Source: an uncultured Acidobacteriota bacterium
Lineage (GTDB): Bacteria > Acidobacteriota > Thermoanaerobaculia > Gp7-AA8
Assembly: GCA_963822445.1 (NCBI GenBank)
Contig: CAWGHO010000003.1
Span: forward strand, 128,001-192,000
Direction: 5' to 3'
DNA length: 64,000 nucleotides
The notes under the pieces were generated by a model that was not told where the DNA came from, did no database searches, and saw only the letters and a list, made by a program, of their open reading frames with translations. Shown here one piece after another: positions 15,374 to 23,114 of this stretch (position 1 is its first letter; every line of letters starts with the position of its first letter). A program made the translations under genes and the position numbers.

Positions 15374-17637
15374 TGCCCTTCCTCCTCTACACGATCTCCG
15401 CCGCCGCGCTGCTCTGGCTCGCGCACCGTTTCGTCCGGCCGCTCTCGCGATGGGCGGCGCTGGTGCTTTTTCTTCTGCCGATGGTCTTCGCCGGATACGC
15501 GCTGATGACCTCGCGGGTCATGGCACCAGTCGATCTCGCCTATCAAACCGTTCCGCTGAGCTGGATGAAGCCCGACCTCGGCATCGAGGAAATCAGCCCC
15601 GGCTTCCACAGCGACGTCTACACGGAGTTCGTTCCCTGGCGCGAAGCGGTGCGCTGGTCGCTGGCGCGCGGCGAATGGGGACTGCGCGATCCGTTCGCGC
15701 TCTCCGGCGACATCCTCCTGGCCGCGCAGCAGACCGCGATTTACTGGCCGCTGACGCTCGTCGCGCTGCTGCTGCCAGCGGCGGTCAGTTTCACCTACAC
15801 CGCGGCGATGACTTTGTTCATCGCGGGACTGTGCGCGTTCCTGCTCGCGCGCGAGCTCGATTGCGGTGAAGCGGCGTCGTTGATCGCTGGCGCGGGATGG
15901 GCGTTTGCCACAGCCATGCTTTCCTTCGCGCTGGTGACGATGTCGGCGACGTGGGCGTGGTGTCCGTTGTTGTTGGTTGCCGTCCGACACGTCGTTCGTG
16001 ATCGCAACATCGTTCTTCTCACCTTCTCCTTCACCGCCCTCCTGTACTCCGGTCACCCCGAGTCCGCCGTTCTGGCGATTCTCCTCGGACTGCTTTACGC
16101 GGCATTCGAGCTCGCGCGCAACCGCGCGAAGGCACCACGCGCCATCGCCGCGGCGCTGGCGGCGGCGGTGATCGCGCTGCTGCTCTCCGCGATTCACCTC
16201 CTGCCGTTTCTCGAGGCCTTGCCGCAGTCGACGGAACACGTCGCGCGGAACGCCATCGCCGCGCCACAGCCCGCACAATCGAACGAAGTCCTCGCGCGAG
16301 TGTCCACGTCCTTCGTTCCCTATCTTCATGGACGGAAGTGGCAGGCAGATTTCGAATGGTTCGACACGGGAGCCGCCGGCAGCATCATCCTCGCGCTGGC
16401 GATCTACGCGGTGATCCGCGTTCGATCCGCGACGACCTGGTTCTTCGCCGCGCTCGCGCTTTTCTCCCTTCTCCTTCACGCGAGATGGCCGCTGCTCGTG
16501 GCGGTGATGCAGAAGACGCCGGTCCTGAGCATCGCCCTGACCGACCGGCTCTCGTTCGGCTTCGCGCTCTGCCTTTGCGTGCTCGCGGCGATCGGCGCGG
16601 AGCGCATCAGCCGTTCAGCCGCGCTGGTGATGTTCGGAACATTGATCGTGCTGTCGGCGATGAGCTGGTGGGCGCTGCACAGGGCCGCGGTCATTCACAG
16701 CCCGCAGCGATTCGGCCATTACGCGACCGCGGCGGAATTGATCGGGCTGACGCTGGCCATGATCGCCGTGGCCTGGAACAAACGCTGGACGCCGGCGCTG
16801 CTGCTCGGCCTGGTCATCGCTCAACGCGCCGTCGCCGAGCACGGGATCTACAAGACGTTCGACACGCGGCAGGCCTATCCGCCGATTCCGATCCTCGAGC
16901 CGCTGAAGAATGCGCCGAAACCGTTTCGCATCACCGGCCATGGCAACGCGTTGATTCCGCAGACGGCATCGATGTACGCGCTCGAAGACGTCCGCGGATT
17001 TCCGGCGCTCACCTTTCAGCGTTACGCGGAAACGTTTCCGCTGTGGTGCACGCCGCAGCCCGTTTTCTACAACCGCGTCGACGATCTGACCCGCCCGTTC
17101 CTCTCCTTTCTGAACGTGCGGTACGCGATCACCTGGGACCGCGATCCGCCGCCGCCCGGCTGGCGCGAGGTCGCGCGACAGAAGGGCTCGATGCTGATCG
17201 AGAACACCCGCGCGCTCGATCGCGCGTTCATTCCGCCGCTCGTGCGATTCGGACCGCTGACGGAAATGCTGCAGGAGACCGACTTCGCGCAGCGCGCCTG
17301 GATCGAAGCCGATCTGCCACGCGGCGAGCGCACGAATGGCCCCGGACGCGTAACCGTCCGCGACGCTCGTCTCGGCTACGTCATCGACGCGGAGATGGAA
17401 GGCGACGGCTGGATCGTCACGTCGATCGCGGCCTGGAAAGGCTGGCGTGCGTACATCGACGGCCGCCGCGTGCAGACCCAATTCGCGAATCACGCGTTTC
17501 TCGGCGTGCACGTGCCGCGAGGCAAGCATCGCGTGGAGCTTCGTTACTGGCCGGAGAGCTTCGTGTGGGGAAGGGCGATCACGGCGGCGACACTCCTCGC
17601 CGCCGCGATCGCGCTGGTTCTACTTCATCGACGCTAG
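15373..17637 (+). CDS. YfhO-family (GT-C) integral membrane protein
   Basis: Many TM helices; SGHPE; C-terminal WKGWRAYIDGR...NHAFLGVHVPRGKHRVELRYWP typical of YfhO. Confidence 0.85.
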   Translation: MPFLLYTISAAALLWLAHRFVRPLSRWAALVLFLLPMVFAGYALMTSRVMAPVDLAYQTVPLSWMKPDLGIEEISPGFHSDVYTEFVPWREAVRWSLARGEWGLRDPFALSGDILLAAQQTAIYWPLTLVALLLPAAVSFTYTAAMTLFIAGLCAFLLARELDCGEAASLIAGAGWAFATAMLSFALVTMSATWAWCPLLLVAVRHVVRDRNIVLLTFSFTALLYSGHPESAVLAILLGLLYAAFELARNRAKAPRAIAAALAAAVIALLLSAIHLLPFLEALPQSTEHVARNAIAAPQPAQSNEVLARVSTSFVPYLHGRKWQADFEWFDTGAAGSIILALAIYAVIRVRSATTWFFAALALFSLLLHARWPLLVAVMQKTPVLSIALTDRLSFGFALCLCVLAAIGAERISRSAALVMFGTLIVLSAMSWWALHRAAVIHSPQRFGHYATAAELIGLTLAMIAVAWNKRWTPALLLGLVIAQRAVAEHGIYKTFDTRQAYPPIPILEPLKNAPKPFRITGHGNALIPQTASMYALEDVRGFPALTFQRYAETFPLWCTPQPVFYNRVDDLTRPFLSFLNVRYAITWDRDPPPPGWREVARQKGSMLIENTRALDRAFIPPLVRFGPLTEMLQETDFAQRAWIEADLPRGERTNGPGRVTVRDARLGYVIDAEMEGDGWIVTSIAAWKGWRAYIDGRRVQTQFANHAFLGVHVPRGKHRVELRYWPESFVWGRAITAATLLAAAIALVLLHRR

Positions 17638-18900
17638 CCGCTTTTCCAGCGCCGCGATGCGGCCGGCGCTGCGCTGCCCTTCCGGAAGCGCCTTCGCGTA
17701 CTCGACGGCCTGAGCGATCGTCTCGCGGGCCGCTTTCGTATCGCCCTTCGCGAGGTAGATGTCCGCGCGCACGGTGAGCACGGACAATCGCCGCGGTCCT
17801 TCGACGAGCATCAGAGCGCGATCGGACTCGGCGAGCGCCTTGTCGTACTCCTTCAAAGCCTTGTACGCGAGCGCGAGACGCGCCGGCGGGTTGTAGTCAT
17901 CCGGGAAATCGCGCTGCGATTGCTCGAGCATCGGAATCGCCTTTTCGGGTGTGCCGAGGTCGAGGTAGGCGGAGACGCGGTGGGAGTCGTAGACCGTGCG
18001 CTGCTCGGGCGTCTTCGCGCGCGCTGCCGCTCCTTCGAGAAACGCCGCCCATTCCTCCCGCAGTTTCCGGCCCGCCGTCTCATCGTCGGCACCGATCAGA
18101 GAGATGTAGAGGCCGGAGCGATCGTCGTCGGAAAGCACGATCTTCGGATCGTCGAAGACCTCGCGGGTCGCCTTCTTCAGCGTCGCGACGGCGTCGGGAA
18201 GTTTCGCCGATTGGGCGCAGGACAGGCCGACCGCGGCCACGTTCGCGGCGGAGACCGTCCCCTTCACCTTTGGATAGAGCCTCAGCGCTTCCTCCGCGCA
18301 GGCAACGTCGGCGTTATTCATCGACAGCGAGAAGATCAGCGACTCGGCCGCCCGGCCGAACTTCGGCCAGTTCTTCGGCGCCGCCGCCATCGCCTCGTGA
18401 ATGCTCTTTGCGGCCGCGCTGTGCCGTCCCTGCGATGAGGAGTCGTCAGCGCGTGCGAGAAAGCGATCCGCGGCCGACAGCGCGCGATTGCGATACGTCT
18501 TCTCCGCGTCGTCGAGCATCGAGCGGACCTGGGAGATGTTCGCGCCGCCGACGTAGCGCAGCGCGACGGTGTCGCGTTTCGCGTCGACGACGATCAGCGT
18601 CGGCAGCGCCGGAATCGGATACTTCTCGAGAAACGCGGCGTTGGCCTTGTTCTCGGTGTTGATGCTGAGCCAGACGAACCGTCCGGCGTACCGCTCGAGG
18701 GATTTGTCCGTGTAGACATAAGCCCTCATCGAGCGGCAGGTGTGTCACCACGGCGCCCACGCCTCGACGAAGATCGGAACGTTCTTCGCCTTCGCGCGGG
18801 CCACCGCTTTCGCGTAATCGTCTTCGATGAAGGGGAGGGTGTCGGCGGCAAACGCGGCGCTGCTGACGAGCAGCGCTGCGATCAACACGAGCTTTTTCAT
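17620..18900 (-). CDS. Exported thioredoxin-like + TPR protein, probable selenoprotein (W51-U52-H-T-C55; in-frame TGA at 18747-18745)
   Basis: Signal peptide MKKLVLIAALLVSSAAFA; ...VPIFVEAWAPW-TGA-HTCRSM continues in frame into the 369-aa ORF (cis-Pro-like LPT motif, TPR helices); long hairpin at 18691-18736 just 3' of the UGA. Confidence 0.85.
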
Positions 18901-21003
18901 TGCGGCCCCGGGGTCACCCAACGCTTCAACCACTCATCGACCTCGCGATAAAACACCCGTGAGTTCTCAGCGTTGAGAATCCAGTGGTTCTCGTCCGGCC
19001 ATACCAGCAGACGGCTCGGCACGCGCAGCCGCTGCAGGACGGACCACATCTCCAGCGTGTTGTTGAGCGGAACGCGGTAGTCCTTCTCGCCGACCGACAG
19101 AAGCATCGGCGTCTTGAACTGCGCCGCGTAGCGAATCGGGTTCTGCGTGCGCCAGACCTCGTTCTGTTCCCAGACCGGGCCGCCCGCGCCGAGCTCGCGG
19201 TGATAGATGACGTCCGAGGTTGCCCCATTGGGATTCGAGGTTCACGAGGCCCGCGTGGCTGATGAGAGCCTTGAAGCGCGTGCCCGACCAGGCCTCGAGG
19301 GCGTTCGCCAGATGCCCGCCGTAGCTCGCGCCGCCCGCGACCTGCCTCGACGCGTCGATGAACGGATACTTTTTGATCGCCTCGTCCGCCGCCTCCATCA
19401 GCTCGTCGGCGGGTCCGCGCAACGGATCGCCCATGATCGCGTTCGCGAAGTCATCGCCGAAACCGGTCGAGCCGGTGTAGTTCGTCAGCAGCATCACGTA
19501 ACCCGGTTTCGCCAGCAGGTGGTAGTTCCAGCGACGCGTGATCTGGTCGCTCCACATGTTGTGCGCGCCGCCGTGGATCAGCACGAACAGCGGGTATTTC
19601 TTCGAGGGATCGAAGTTCGCCGGCGTGATGAGTAGGTTGTGAATCTTCCGGCCGCGCTTCGACGTGAACCAGAAGTGCTGGGGCGGCGACCAGTCGATCG
19701 ACCGCGCCACCTCGACCGTGAATTCGGTGAGGTTGCGATGCTTCCGCGTCGCTGGATCGATGCGAACCACTTCCGGGAAGTCGACGGACGAGCCCCACTG
19801 TCCCACGAACACCGGCGCGTTCGCGGCGAAGTCGAGACCGGAGTACGACGCCGCGCTCCTGATCGATGGCCACCGCCGCCGCGCCGCCCTTCGACGGCAC
19901 GCTGTACAGCTTCACCAGCCCCGAATCTTCGGCGGTGAAGTAGATGGTCTTGCCATCGTTCGAGACGGCAAAGTCCCCAACCGAGCGATCGGTGTTCGCA
20001 ACGGTCCGTTCGTTCTTCATCGACGGCCATTCGAACGCCACCAGGCGCTCGGAGTTGTAGGTCTTGCCGTTGTTCGGACTGAACGTCGCGTAAAGAGTCT
20101 TGCCGTCGGGACTGAAGGTCGGGCTGCTGTAACTCCCGTTTGCAGCGGTGATTTTCTCCGGCTCGCTGCCAGTCGCGCTGACGCGATAAAGGTCGTACGC
20201 GACCTCGGAGTACGCGGACGTATGCCGTCCCGTGGTGGCGGCAAAGACCAGCCACTGACCGTCCGGCGTCCATTCGCCGCGAATCGTTTCGCCGCCCTCG
20301 CCGCCGCCGCCCGTTCCCGCGAATCCCGCCGCGGCCACGAGTTGCGTTCCGGCCAGCACGTCCTTCGGCTTCGAGACGGCATCGAGCGACTGCACGATGA
20401 TGTGCGGCTGCTTCGGCTCCATCCAGCGATCCCAGGCCCGGATCGGGAAGGCCTCGTACACGCGAACTTTGAACTTGCGGTCCTTTTCTTCCTTCGCCAG
20501 CTTTCTTGTTCGCCTCGTCGTCCGCGGCGCCGGGAAACACGACGCTGGTGAAGGCGATGGCGTTGCCGTCGGGCCTGAACTTCGGCGCGCGAGCGCCGGT
20601 GGAGAGGTTCGTGACGCGCTGGGCTTCGCCGCCGGTCAGATCGAGAACGTAGATCTGATTCTGTTCGTCGCCGTCGCGCTTCGCGGAGAAGGCGATGCGG
20701 CGGCTGTCGGGCGGACCAGGTCGCGTCACTCTCGCCGGCTTTCGTCGCGGTGAGCTTGCGCGGCTTCGCGCTGCCATCGGAGGGAGCGATCCAGAGGTCG
20801 GTCGTCTGTTCCTTCTCGTCGTAACTGGGATCGGTGACCGAAAAAACGACCCATTTGCCATCGGGACTGATCGACGGCGCGCTGACGCGCCTGGTCATCC
20901 AGAGCGTCTCGTGGGTGATGGGCTGCTTGTCCGCGGCGACCGCGCCGATCGCGATGAAAGCGACGAGCGCGAGGACGGCGGGTCGGAGGAGGGTCTTGGG
21001 CAT
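18897..21003 (-). pseudogene. S9 family peptidase (beta-propeller + alpha/beta hydrolase) interrupted by four +1 frameshifts, probably sequencing errors
   Basis: Signal peptide, SPDG propeller repeats, IHGG, GGASYGG nucleophile, DYRV and ENHW spread over successive frames; single extra bases near 20714, 20502, 19847 and 19220. Confidence 0.85.
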
Positions 21004-21020: not shown

Positions 21021-21113
21021 AAGTCTCAAAGTCGCAAAGTCGCAGAGTCTCAGAGATGCGGGCCGCGGACGCGACCTCTTTGAGACTCTGCGACTCTGAG
21101 ACTCTGAGACTTT
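21021..21113. repeat. Inverted octamer-repeat hairpin (AGTCKCAR x4 / YTGMGACT x4)
   Basis: agtctcaa agtcgcaa agtcgcag agtctcag ... ttgagact ctgcgact ctgagact ctgagact. Confidence 0.8.
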
Positions 21114-21466
21114 ATCGCGGCCAGGGCGAGGAACGCCCCGAACAAATCGATCACGACATCAACCGCCGACCCGGTTCTCCGAAGAGATTGACTCTGCATC
21201 GACTCATCCACCGCCGCCACTCCCAGCACGATCGCGAGGATCACCAACCACCGCCGGTCCGCGCGCCAGGCGAGGCCGGCGAGGATTCCGTACGCCACCA
21301 CGTGCGCGAGTTTGCGTAGCGCGACGTGCAGCCAGCGGGGGACTTCGACGCCGAAGATCGTCTGCAGCAGGCTGCCGCTCGACTCGGCAGAGAAGAGGTC
21401 GGTCGCTGCAAAAAGGATGAGGGCGGCCCAGACGACGACGGGACCCCACAGTTTCAGAATGTGCAC
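21050..21466 (-). CDS. VanZ-family membrane protein
   Basis: RKLAHVVAYGIL and DESMQS...RTGSAVDVVID motifs; C-terminus runs into the octamer repeat. Confidence 0.8.
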   Translation of the reverse strand: MHILKLWGPVVVWAALILFAATDLFSAESSGSLLQTIFGVEVPRWLHVALRKLAHVVAYGILAGLAWRADRRWLVILAIVLGVAAVDESMQSQSLRRTGSAVDVVIDLFGAFLALAAIKSQSLRVAESQRGRVRGPHL

Positions 21467-21494
21467 TCGCCGCGTACAATAACTGCTTCGCAAA

Positions 21495-23114
21495 ATGGAA
21501 ACACGCCCGATCCGCCTCACGGTTCATCAGCCGAACCTCTCTCCGATCAAGCTCAACGCTGAAGGTCCGACCATCACCCTCGGCCGCGCGACGGACTGCA
21601 CGGTTCCCATCAAGGACCGTTACCTCTCCCGCAAACACGCCGAGATCATCTACGCCTCGGGTCAGTGGGCGGTGCGCGACTGCGGCAGCGTCAACGGCAC
21701 GCTGCTCAACGGCACCAGGCTGACAATGGTCACCCCGCTCCGTCCGGGCGACCGCATCGTCCTCGGCGACAGCGAAGTCATTTTCGAGCCCGAAGCGGAC
21801 ACCTCCCAGTCCCAGCTCATCGCTCTCGACAGCAACTCCCACGCGAAGAACCTGGCCATCCCCATCCGCGATGCGGTGGCCGACAACAACGCGCGCACGA
21901 ACGTGATGGCCTCGCTGGCCCTCGAGTTCATCGAAGACCGGCCGATGCACGAGCTGTTCGACTTCATCCTCGACCGCGTCGTCGATCTCTTGCATCCCTC
22001 GCGGACCGCGCTGGCACTGCTCGGCAGCGACAGCAAGACCTTCAGCACCGTTCACCTGCGCCGCAGCGACGCCTCCGACTCGCTCGACCTCTTCATCTCC
22101 CGCACGCTCCTCGGCGAAGTCATCGAAGAGCGCAACGTCGTGTCGTTCGTCGACACCTCGCAGGATGAGAAGCTCGCCCGCGCCGAATCGATCGTCGCGC
22201 AGAACATCCGCTCGGCCGTCTGCGCGCCGCTGCTCGTCGGCGATCAGGTTCTCGGCGTTCTGTATCTCGACTTCCTCGCCAACCGCGGCGCTGTCACGCA
22301 CGAGGACGTCCGGCTCGTCGCGCAGATCGCGCGGTTCGCCGCGGTCAAGCTGGAGACGACGCGGCTGCGGGAAGAATCGATTGCCAAGGCCAAGCTCGAT
22401 GAAGAGCTGCGCACGGCGTACGTGATTCAGAGCAAGCTCCTGCCGGCGCAACTGCCGGAGATTCCCGGCTACTCATTCGCCGGCACGAACAAGCCCTGCC
22501 GCACGGTCAGCGGCGATTACTACGACGTGGTGCTCAGGCCTGACGGGCGGCTGTACTTCATCATCGCCGACGTCAGCGGCAAGGGCATCACCGCCGCGCT
22601 GGTGATGGCCAGCGTGGCCACGGCCTTCAACATCTTCACGCGCACCGATCCCACGCCCGCGGATCTCGTCCGGGAGATGAACGTCACCCTCGCGCCGAAA
22701 ACCGCGCCGACGAAGTTCGTGACGCTCGTCGCGGGTGTGCTCGATCCGAAGACCGGCCACATCGAATACGCGAACGCCGGTCACGTGCCGCCGCTGCTGA
22801 TCTCGAACTGCGGCGTGACGCAGATGAACATGACCGACATGGTCGTCGGCCTGTTCGCCAATGCGAAATACCGCAACCAGACGATGCAGCTGGGGCAGGG
22901 CGATTCGCTGGTGCTCTTTACTGACGGGGTGACCGAGGCGGAGAACGAGAGCGAAGATCAGCTCGGGCTGGCGCCGGTCGCGGCGATGGTGGAGAAGCTC
23001 CACGGAAACTGCGCCGCGGAGATCCTCACCGCCATCGACGCGCACGTGCAGACGTTCTGCGGCAACGCGCCGAGTACGGATGACGTGACGATGATGGCGT
23101 TGACGCGGTTGTAG
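21495..23114 (+). CDS. FHA-GAF-PP2C (SpoIIE/RsbU-type) phosphatase
   Basis: FHA GR...SRKHA...SVNGT; GAF; VSGDYYD, ADVSGKG, NAGH, FTDGVTE, DDVT. Confidence 0.93.
   Translation: METRPIRLTVHQPNLSPIKLNAEGPTITLGRATDCTVPIKDRYLSRKHAEIIYASGQWAVRDCGSVNGTLLNGTRLTMVTPLRPGDRIVLGDSEVIFEPEADTSQSQLIALDSNSHAKNLAIPIRDAVADNNARTNVMASLALEFIEDRPMHELFDFILDRVVDLLHPSRTALALLGSDSKTFSTVHLRRSDASDSLDLFISRTLLGEVIEERNVVSFVDTSQDEKLARAESIVAQNIRSAVCAPLLVGDQVLGVLYLDFLANRGAVTHEDVRLVAQIARFAAVKLETTRLREESIAKAKLDEELRTAYVIQSKLLPAQLPEIPGYSFAGTNKPCRTVSGDYYDVVLRPDGRLYFIIADVSGKGITAALVMASVATAFNIFTRTDPTPADLVREMNVTLAPKTAPTKFVTLVAGVLDPKTGHIEYANAGHVPPLLISNCGVTQMNMTDMVVGLFANAKYRNQTMQLGQGDSLVLFTDGVTEAENESEDQLGLAPVAAMVEKLHGNCAAEILTAIDAHVQTFCGNAPSTDDVTMMALTRL

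Follow-up and report, generated by a model that had tools for sequence, protein, structure and literature searches.

A predicted exported thioredoxin–TPR selenoprotein of Acidobacteriota with two conserved hairpins behind its UGA codon

How is an in-frame TGA codon read when it falls exactly where a thioredoxin-fold protein would carry its attacking cysteine, and which RNA signal would direct that reading? The question is raised by a locus in a 64,000-nucleotide (nt) stretch of DNA from an uncultured Acidobacteriota bacterium of the class Thermoanaerobaculia (assembly GCA_963822445.1, contig CAWGHO010000003.1, positions 128,001 to 192,000 of the forward strand), the whole of which we call the window. 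A model that saw only the letters and open reading frames (ORFs) of the window had proposed that two of these ORFs form one exported selenoprotein with thioredoxin and tetratricopeptide repeat (TPR) domains, decoded with the help of a hairpin just behind the TGA; we refer to this as the original prediction. Here, comparison with relatives indicates that this is almost certainly a real, widespread and systematically mis-annotated selenoprotein gene, of the thioredoxin-fold kind with a UxxC motif (U, selenocysteine (Sec)), with a new architecture and an atypical two-hairpin element. The overall explanation that accounts best for the sequence data, and in which we have good confidence, would be an exported thioredoxin–TPR selenoprotein whose UGA at codon 52 is recoded via a bipartite RNA element.

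A UGA codon at the active site of a thioredoxin-fold protein

The gene lies on the minus strand at 17620–18900 and runs for 426 codons from an ATG at 18900–18898 to a TAG stop at 17622–17620. Around codon 52 the minus-strand letters read TGG TGA CAC ACC TGC, with the TGA at 18747–18745. The letters and the ORF list bear out the original prediction that a 62-amino-acid (aa) and a 369-aa ORF share a frame and are split solely by this TGA: from stop to stop, a 62-aa frame (18745–18933) and a 374-aa frame (17620–18744) make one contiguous frame, and the 369-aa ORF is the 374-aa frame counted from its first internal ATG at 18729. Translated from the ATG at 18900 with TGA as U, the gene yields 426 residues containing EAWAPW-U-HTC. 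The predicted Sec codon (18745–18747) is thus, as had been claimed, at the attacking-cysteine position of a thioredoxin W-C-x-x-C motif, the first position of a U-H-T-C redox motif encoded at 18736–18747.

We searched for orthologs in all six frames of 60 relatives, then in a 401-genome sample of the phylum at an expectation value (E) ≤ 1e-40, and scanned 185,579 species-representative genomes, one genome per species. Among the 60 relatives, full-length orthologs are present in 30 of the 34 other genomes of the same genus and in several other families of the class, and the phylum sample holds orthologs in 25 of 401 genomes; orthologs are common among near relatives and patchy over the phylum. 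The species scan returned at least 595 stretches encoding a relative, and codon 52 was checked in the best 80. Record titles name Thermoanaerobaculia and other Acidobacteriota, together with a few Candidatus Eisenbacteria, Krumholzibacteriia, a deltaproteobacterial metagenome-assembled genome and Candidatus Udaeobacter.

At the codon that aligns with residue 52, 53 of the 56 loci from the whole-genome searches have TGA and the other 3 have TGC; in the best 80 of the 595 stretches the split is 75 TGA to 5 TGC. The two locus sets overlap, and merging them leaves 136 loci with 115 distinct 100-nt segments, 109 of which carry TGA (Sec) and 6 TGC (cysteine, Cys), with no other codon seen. Three of the 53 TGA loci (L026, L034 and L044) come from genomes flagged as unpublished (G025, G002 and G042); leaving these out gives 50 of 53 and does not alter the result. 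The flanking sequence VWAPW-U-(H/Y)(T/S)C is kept down to 30% protein identity with the query, and in an alignment of 32 orthologs W48, A49, W51, U52, C55 and P100 are invariant, with coding conserved on either side of codon 52. Homologues with TGA or Cys at residue 52, proposed as a check by the original prediction, therefore exist in quantity, and its refuting case, in which no relative has TGA at this codon, is contradicted by the 109 distinct forms with TGA in the same column. An alternation of Sec and Cys at one codon is the standard signature of a selenoprotein and excludes a private nonsense mutation or assembly error. With very high confidence, on this comparative evidence, we take UGA-52 to be a Sec codon.

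The genome encodes the selenocysteine machinery

Consistent with Sec decoding, the source genome (6.0 Mb in 3 contigs) carries tRNA-Sec, selA, selB and selD, all above family cut-offs, so that the genome search suggested in the original prediction finds every Sec gene named there. The profile scores are 488.6 bits for selA, 368.6 bits for selB and 371 bits for selD. The tRNA-Sec gene scores 71.1 bits, is called SeC with anticodon tca by ARAGORN and lies at C3:112948–113041 on the plus strand (L001); this places it on the same contig as the thioredoxin–TPR gene, 15 kb before window position 1. Two further genes, selD (C2:1710833–1711771, L012) and the formate dehydrogenase alpha gene fdhA (C3:471697–474603, L078), each contain one in-frame TGA, followed 11 nt later by a stem with a loop of GGA in selD and GGUCU in fdhA.

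We considered whether Cys forms of the thioredoxin–TPR gene arose through loss of the Sec trait, and rejected this explanation: all three Cys-form genomes checked (G017, G046 and G432) keep selA and tRNA-Sec, and the replacement is therefore specific to the gene. In G017, one of the three, selD is a Cys form as well (L080), although selA and tRNA-Sec are retained. Separately, the source genome has two adjoining weak paralogs of the thioredoxin domain at C1:1339543–1342051 on the minus strand (E 4.6e-9 and 3.8e-6), neither with internal stops; similar tandem pairs occur in most relatives, some with an in-frame TGA in other genomes.

Two conserved hairpins follow the UGA codon

Two adjacent hairpins can form directly downstream of UGA-52. 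Hairpin 1 occupies 18689–18738 of the minus strand (50 nt; columns 10–59 of an alignment that starts at the UGA) and is a long interrupted stem-loop that contains the hairpin of the original prediction. The letters CCGCUC begin 8 nt past the UGA and pair with GAGCGG, the inner stems are as originally given, and the apical loop starts 31 nt past the UGA. A 71-nt fold has a minimum free energy (MFE) of −29.1 kcal/mol (z −3.5; 2 of 200 dinucleotide shuffles equally stable); the MFE of hairpin 1 is −24.8 kcal/mol. The predicted hairpin is not only present but conserved, with 89.6% of hairpin 1 cells paired in 35 close Sec sequences, against 23–44% when partners are slid. Over a wider set of 52 Sec sequences, to which the pair and loop counts that follow refer, pairing reaches 90% in the outer helix and 76% in the inner; the closing pairs 10–59 and 11–58 hold in 52 and 51 of 52. 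Pair 27–46, which joins a synonymous Ala position to a Ser/Gly first position, is C-G in 18 and U-A in 14, and pair 30–43 is C-G in 15, U-A in 10 and unpaired in 24. The loop takes 15 different hexamers (for example TACACG and TTCACC) and has no conserved G. In distant lineages hairpin 1 exists with shifted registers.

Hairpin 1 is weaker in Cys forms than in Sec forms. When synonymous codons were shuffled with the protein kept, all 53 Sec forms gave a negative z (mean −2.16), and for 25 of them no more than 5 of 200 shuffles matched the native stability, whereas 3 Cys forms had a mean z of −0.62. The MFE of the hairpin 1 region is −27.5 kcal/mol (standard deviation 3.3) in Sec forms and −18.3 kcal/mol (standard deviation 4.6) in Cys forms.

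Hairpin 2 lies one nucleotide further on, at 18669–18687 of the minus strand (columns 61–79), and consists of 19 nt with a stem of 7–8 base pairs (bp), the loop GGUUC and an MFE of −11.8 kcal/mol. Its stem begins 57 nt and its loop 64 nt past the UGA. The window's own 108 nt fold as two adjacent hairpins (MFE −39.9 kcal/mol, z −3.5; 1 of 200 shuffles as stable), and for both hairpins together 86.7–87.6% of cells are paired, against 29–45% with slid partners. Conservation here is close to complete. Helix cells of hairpin 2 are 98.8% paired, 5 of the 8 pairs never vary, and loop positions G69, U70 and U71 are invariant in 52 of 52; the variation that exists keeps pairing at 66–74 (A-U 38, G-U 13, G-C 1) and mostly at 68–72 (G-C 45, A-U 2, unpaired 5). 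Codon entropy vanishes or nearly vanishes across codons +20 to +25, where Ala is always GCC (51 of 51), Arg always CGG (45 of 45) and Val always GTC (51 of 51); elsewhere Ala and Arg codons vary freely.

The motif starts at column 61 in 108 of the 109 distinct Sec forms, fixed at every synonymous site, and the sole exception (L066) has a one-codon deletion, with the motif at column 58. Of the 6 Cys forms just one has the motif, and two of those without it (L126 and L172) keep the peptide AGRFVW spelled with other codons. Because Cys forms lose the motif, two of them while keeping the peptide, the nucleotide conservation of hairpin 2 is tied to the UGA and not to the protein or to codon bias.

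A search of the source genome for the hairpin 2 pattern, allowing up to 2 mismatches, found an exact match in the thioredoxin–TPR gene only; the 9 other places differ in sequence, and the genome thus shows no indication that another gene carries this element. Among these inexact matches are four identical 19-nt GC-rich palindromes at C2:221127, 1598454, 1610816 and 1832012 (L073, L076 and L077), which may represent copies of a dispersed repeat or of an element resembling a terminator.

A candidate bipartite SECIS element

Which of the two hairpins would act as the Sec insertion sequence (SECIS)? In the published bacterial consensus, a loop of 3–9 nt caps an upper stem of 4–16 bp with an MFE of at most −7.5 kcal/mol (PMC13188914, Fig. 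2 legend), a G stands in the first two loop positions, and 16–37 nt separate the UGA from the apical loop; the available passages of that survey add that not every bacterial SECIS element conforms to the consensus, and describe no two-hairpin layout. Loop size, stem length and MFE of both hairpins (−24.8 kcal/mol for hairpin 1; −11.8 kcal/mol and 7–8 bp for hairpin 2) lie within these ranges. The two remaining features are divided between them: hairpin 2 has the G (GGUUC) and hairpin 1 does not, whereas the loop of hairpin 1 is within the distance range at 31 nt and that of hairpin 2 is beyond it at 64 nt.

The SECIS elements of selD and fdhA in the same genome fit the consensus as those passages give it, with stems 11 nt past the UGA, and hairpin 2 is of the same type, placed at 57 nt; the fdhA stem, with 7 bp and a 5-nt loop, is like that of hairpin 2. 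Folding of hairpin 1 changes the effective distance. With hairpin 1 closed, 6 unpaired nt in front of it and 1 between the hairpins leave 7 nt from the UGA to hairpin 2, and if its two weak bottom pairs open there are 11 unpaired nt, the spacing of selD and fdhA. For the minimal E. coli SECIS, an 11-nt spacing is reported to be optimal.

We therefore propose, as a model, that a bipartite RNA element in the 79 nt from the UGA directs recoding. Hairpin 1 (18738–18689, 50 nt) would fold on itself and leave 7 to 11 unpaired nt before hairpin 2; its folding would restore the usual proximity of hairpin 2 to the ribosome; and hairpin 2 (18687–18669) would serve as the SelB-binding minihelix of the selD and fdhA type. 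That the recoding signal lies within the 79 nt that begin at the UGA is highly likely. The division of labour, in which SelB would bind hairpin 2 and hairpin 1 would form the bridge, is what our analysis moderately favours, and the balance tips slightly towards the fuller claim that this is a natural bipartite bacterial SECIS, in which a minihelix 57 nt past the UGA works only because a 50-nt hairpin folds away the distance.

The main competitor is that hairpin 1 by itself is a non-canonical SECIS bound by SelB, with the stretch behind it conserved for some other reason. The position of its loop, inside the 16–37 nt range as the survey passages state it, speaks for this, as do its stability at −24.8 kcal/mol, its weakening in Cys forms and the fact that it shows the only clear two-sided changes (pairs 27–46 and 30–43). 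Yet its variable loop, with 15 hexamers in 52 Sec forms, lacks the conserved G that the same passages call for, and this reading leaves two things unexplained: that the 19 nt behind hairpin 1 keep every synonymous site constant in 108 of 109 Sec forms, a constraint from which Cys forms are free, and that the same 19 nt resemble the fdhA and selD minihelices of the genome. We consider it unlikely, though by some way the best of the alternatives. The original prediction had noted that the loop lacks the usual G and that the SECIS might be non-canonical: the missing G is real, but hairpin 1 is probably not the part that SelB binds, and a GGUUC hairpin follows it.

Several observations weigh against the bipartite element or limit what the conservation can say about it. 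No single hairpin agrees with all four features of the SECIS model as presented in the survey passages, and SelB is assigned to hairpin 2 on the strength of its resemblance to the selD and fdhA elements. The window's own synonymous-codon shuffle is only marginal (z −1.88; 8 of 200 as stable). RNAalifold kept the outer stem in the close set but paired the interior otherwise, and gave no consensus structure for 26 diverse sequences; because it did not recover the structure, the named structures were tested by counting pairs. With fixed columns only 70.7% of cells are paired in the 26 diverse sequences, because the register of hairpin 1 shifts between lineages. Two-sided changes are not in excess, the 2 observed in the 35 close Sec sequences being reached by 465 of 500 shuffles and the 6 observed in the 52 Sec sequences by 54 of 500; the covariation check that the original prediction called for thus yields two pairs that alternate between C-G and U-A, but no two-sided signal above shuffles. 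An excess appears only in cell counts and the covariation score, which relatedness can inflate. Hairpin 2 is almost invariant, and its support is accordingly conservation and the Sec/Cys contrast, not covariation; that contrast comes from only 6 distinct Cys forms, and one Cys form (L045/L174) keeps both hairpins.

Other readings of the UGA codon

Three further alternatives concern the codon and not the hairpins. Stable downstream structures can stimulate read-through generally, and UGA-52 might in principle be read by a route other than Sec, through a near-cognate Cys or Trp tRNA or through programmed read-through stimulated by the hairpins, with an ordinary residue inserted. We hold this to be very improbable: UGA-52 is the catalytic Cys position of a thioredoxin motif at which the sole alternative codon is Cys, the classical Sec/Cys signature; all Sec genes are present, with one TGA each in selD and fdhA of the same genome; and next door, at 18899–18897, TGA serves the adjoining gene as an ordinary stop.

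A nonsense mutation, pseudogene lesion or assembly error has negligible probability and is already refuted by the comparative data. The frame of the upstream S9 peptidase gene changes at least four times, once through an extra G in a G-run, so the assembly or the locus is not flawless; but indel errors cannot make an in-frame TGA, the identical TGA column recurs in 109 distinct sequences from independent assemblies in several families and other phyla, and an open frame encodes conserved protein both before and after the TGA. At least seven metagenome contigs of relatives, from runs X1, X2 and X20 (soil and sediment), also bridge the TGA site and, among the matches listed, show no difference at 18745–18747, which lends weak support; two runs are labelled RNA-Seq by guess and may be DNA. 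In the sequencing-run search no run contained more than 0.15 of the sampled words, and none of the matching runs listed was RNA.

The public gene calls imply a third alternative, in which one gene encodes a 62-aa leader peptide and another a 369-aa TPR protein; their 367–391-aa 'tetratricopeptide repeat protein' entries cover 76–87% of the query. It is just as readily dismissed. Such a split falls inside the active-site motif and would break the thioredoxin fold in two, relatives with Cys have one undivided protein of 432–466 aa with Thioredoxin and TPR Pfam domains, and the predicted model folds as a single protein (predicted local distance difference test (pLDDT) 93).

A predicted extracytoplasmic thioredoxin–TPR protein

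Read through as a selenoprotein, the gene encodes three parts. Residues 1–19 (18844–18900, minus strand) resemble a signal peptide of the Sec type as read from the sequence, with MKK, a hydrophobic core and A-F-A, and by a crude pattern search 53 of the 56 ortholog loci likewise start with a signal-peptide-like stretch, two of them with lipobox-like motifs. A thioredoxin-fold domain follows at residues 26–129 (18514–18825, minus), matched by Pfam Thioredoxin_7 (PF13899; 40.3 bits against a cut-off of 27, residues 26–107) and Thioredoxin (32.3 against 23.5). The remainder, residues ~143–424 (17629–18474, minus), is an all-helical TPR-like superhelix of ~280 residues according to Pfam TPR, the structural model and Foldseek; several Pfam TPR families match residues 308–403 above cut-offs. 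An AlphaFold model computed on the 32-ortholog alignment has a mean pLDDT of 93.1 and a predicted template modelling score of 0.88, with residues 1–19 disordered (pLDDT <50). The thioredoxin fold is modelled with strands at 43–48, 76–81, 101–106 and 111–117 and a helix at 53–62, after which 16 helices span residues 143–424. The redox motif (residues 52–55) sits at the N-terminus of the helix, and the conserved proline of the fold is the invariant P100. The claim of a 426-aa exported thioredoxin–TPR selenoprotein is in agreement with the Sec/Cys pattern, the Sec genes, the Pfam domains and the signal-peptide-like N-terminus.

Among chains of solved structure, those nearest in sequence are 2kuc (E 2.5e-9), thioredoxins and the DsbD gamma domain (~5e-6). 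The top Foldseek match in the Protein Data Bank is E. coli YbbN (3qou; E 2.9e-5, template modelling scores 0.22/0.32, identity 13%), with TPR superhelices next. YbbN is the chaperedoxin CnoX and is not known to have a full CxxC. Pfam and NCBIfam scans give no sequence-family link to it. The protein could act as a periplasmic or extracytoplasmic thiol-disulfide reductase or isomerase in which Sec would be the attacking residue and the TPR domain would hold client proteins. Whether it is such a secreted, selenium-dependent enzyme, a thioredoxin–TPR analogue of YbbN, we regard as evenly poised, and it counts against the assignment that it is drawn from domains only. Two cysteines of the TPR-like domain, Cys201 (18297–18299, minus) and Cys228 (18216–18218, minus), are near-invariant (at least 90% of the 32 orthologs); they could form a structural disulfide or a second redox pair in the exported protein.

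Gene neighbourhood

Immediately upstream, at 18897–21003 on the minus strand, is the gene for an S9 (prolyl-oligopeptidase family) peptidase with PD40 repeats, whose TGA stop overlaps the selenoprotein ATG in the letters ATGA (18900–18897). It is not an intact ORF here, because its domains are spread over at least four frames: Peptidase_S9 profile positions 4–105 and 110–210 fall in two different frames, and at one break, near 19226, a G-run is longer by one G than in three orthologs. The genes flanking the peptidase are intact, which points to a recent pseudogene or to local indel errors in the assembly.

An S9 gene adjoins the thioredoxin–TPR gene in most genomes of the genus and in two further loci of the thioredoxin–TPR family (L052 and L054), and is absent from all more distant loci; in several orthologs the two genes are ~250 nt apart and do not overlap. 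Translational coupling to an exported S9 peptidase, as originally suggested, is thus correct as to the overlap itself, but the peptidase frame is broken and the coupling is not conserved, the adjacency being limited and some orthologs lying ~250 nt apart. A wider functional context is likewise not apparent, and this too must be set against our interpretation: clustering of flanking ORFs over the 56 loci found no conserved neighbour beyond the genus and these two loci, so we propose no operon partner. Further upstream, a 539-aa ORF (21495–23114, plus strand) diverges from a small ORF (21050–21520, minus strand); by eye its translation resembles an FHA–GAF–PP2C/SpoIIE phosphatase-type regulator.

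Discussion

The Sec forms of this family are hidden by their annotation. Among the best 120 clusters in the protein database, most are 367–391-aa fragments that start after the TGA, called 'tetratricopeptide repeat protein' where they are named, and a minority are 432–466-aa forms named 'thioredoxin family protein'. Databases truncate the Sec forms at the Sec codon. Their protein records thus lack the active site, and estimates of selenium use by these abundant soil bacteria come out too low. The family is widespread in soil Acidobacteriota of the class Thermoanaerobaculia, with named records from other phyla too.

The suggestion that this may be an uncatalogued selenoprotein family has held up. 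No NCBIfam model scores above its cut-off, the nearest selenoprotein models being TsoB (NF045694; 31.9 against 805) and trx7_PDZ_seleno (NF041199; 17.1 against 300), and NF047660 (HUIPC) and NF040730 (SaoT) give no match at E ≤ 0.01. A 2026 inventory lists 119 prokaryotic selenoprotein families (PMC13188914, Table 1), and the thioredoxin–TPR family matches no row of that table. The main text of the inventory is without the terms TPR, tetratricopeptide, PF13899, Acidobacteri- and Thermoanaerobaculia, while its supplements might list the family under another, generic thioredoxin name. Literature text searches found no paper linking Thermoanaerobaculia with selenocysteine, and none on a bacterial selenoprotein that joins tetratricopeptide repeats and thioredoxin.

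The family would add an exported thioredoxin–TPR architecture to the selenoprotein catalogue, and its candidate SelB site, far outside the accepted distance window behind a conserved hairpin, offers a testable case for the bacterial proximity rule. If the bipartite SECIS is true, the 16–37 nt rule, as the survey passages word it, would concern unfolded distance and not sequence distance, SECIS-based searches would systematically miss a class of genes, and the element would be a natural template for placing a SECIS further from the Sec codon in engineered selenoproteins.

Set beside known proteins, the thioredoxin–TPR selenoprotein shares with YbbN an N-terminal thioredoxin-fold domain followed by a TPR domain, but YbbN is a cytoplasmic protein of 282 residues, whereas the protein described here has a predicted signal peptide, a longer TPR region and U-H-T-C. 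With 2kuc, a putative disulphide isomerase of Bacteroides, and the DsbD gamma domain it has in common the thioredoxin fold of extracytoplasmic reductases and the W-C-x-x-C arrangement; these proteins use Cys instead of Sec and have no TPR domain, and with the NCBIfam DsbD model the protein described here reaches 36.9 bits, below the cut-off of 330. The UxxC families of the inventory (Thioredoxin, PF00085; thiol:disulfide interchange, PF13098; thiol-disulfide isomerase-like, cd02966) share the thioredoxin fold, an attacking Sec and Cys homologues, and PF00085 and PF13098 both match the thioredoxin domain above cut-offs. They are single-domain families, each with one domain model, whereas the present family has a signal peptide, a ~280-residue TPR superhelix and PF13899 as its best model, and their SECIS layout differs from its two-hairpin layout. 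The Trx7/PDZ family (NF041199) likewise fuses a Thioredoxin_7-type domain to a protein-binding domain and has Sec in the redox motif, but at the other position (CxxU, per PMC13188914) and with PDZ in place of TPR, and the thioredoxin–TPR protein is not a member. Compared with the canonical bacterial SECIS as the survey passages describe it, hairpin 2 is alike in its stem of 7–8 bp, its loop of 3–5 nt starting G-G-U and its MFE of −11.8 kcal/mol, and unlike it in that the loop lies 64 nt past the UGA with a 50-nt hairpin intercalated.

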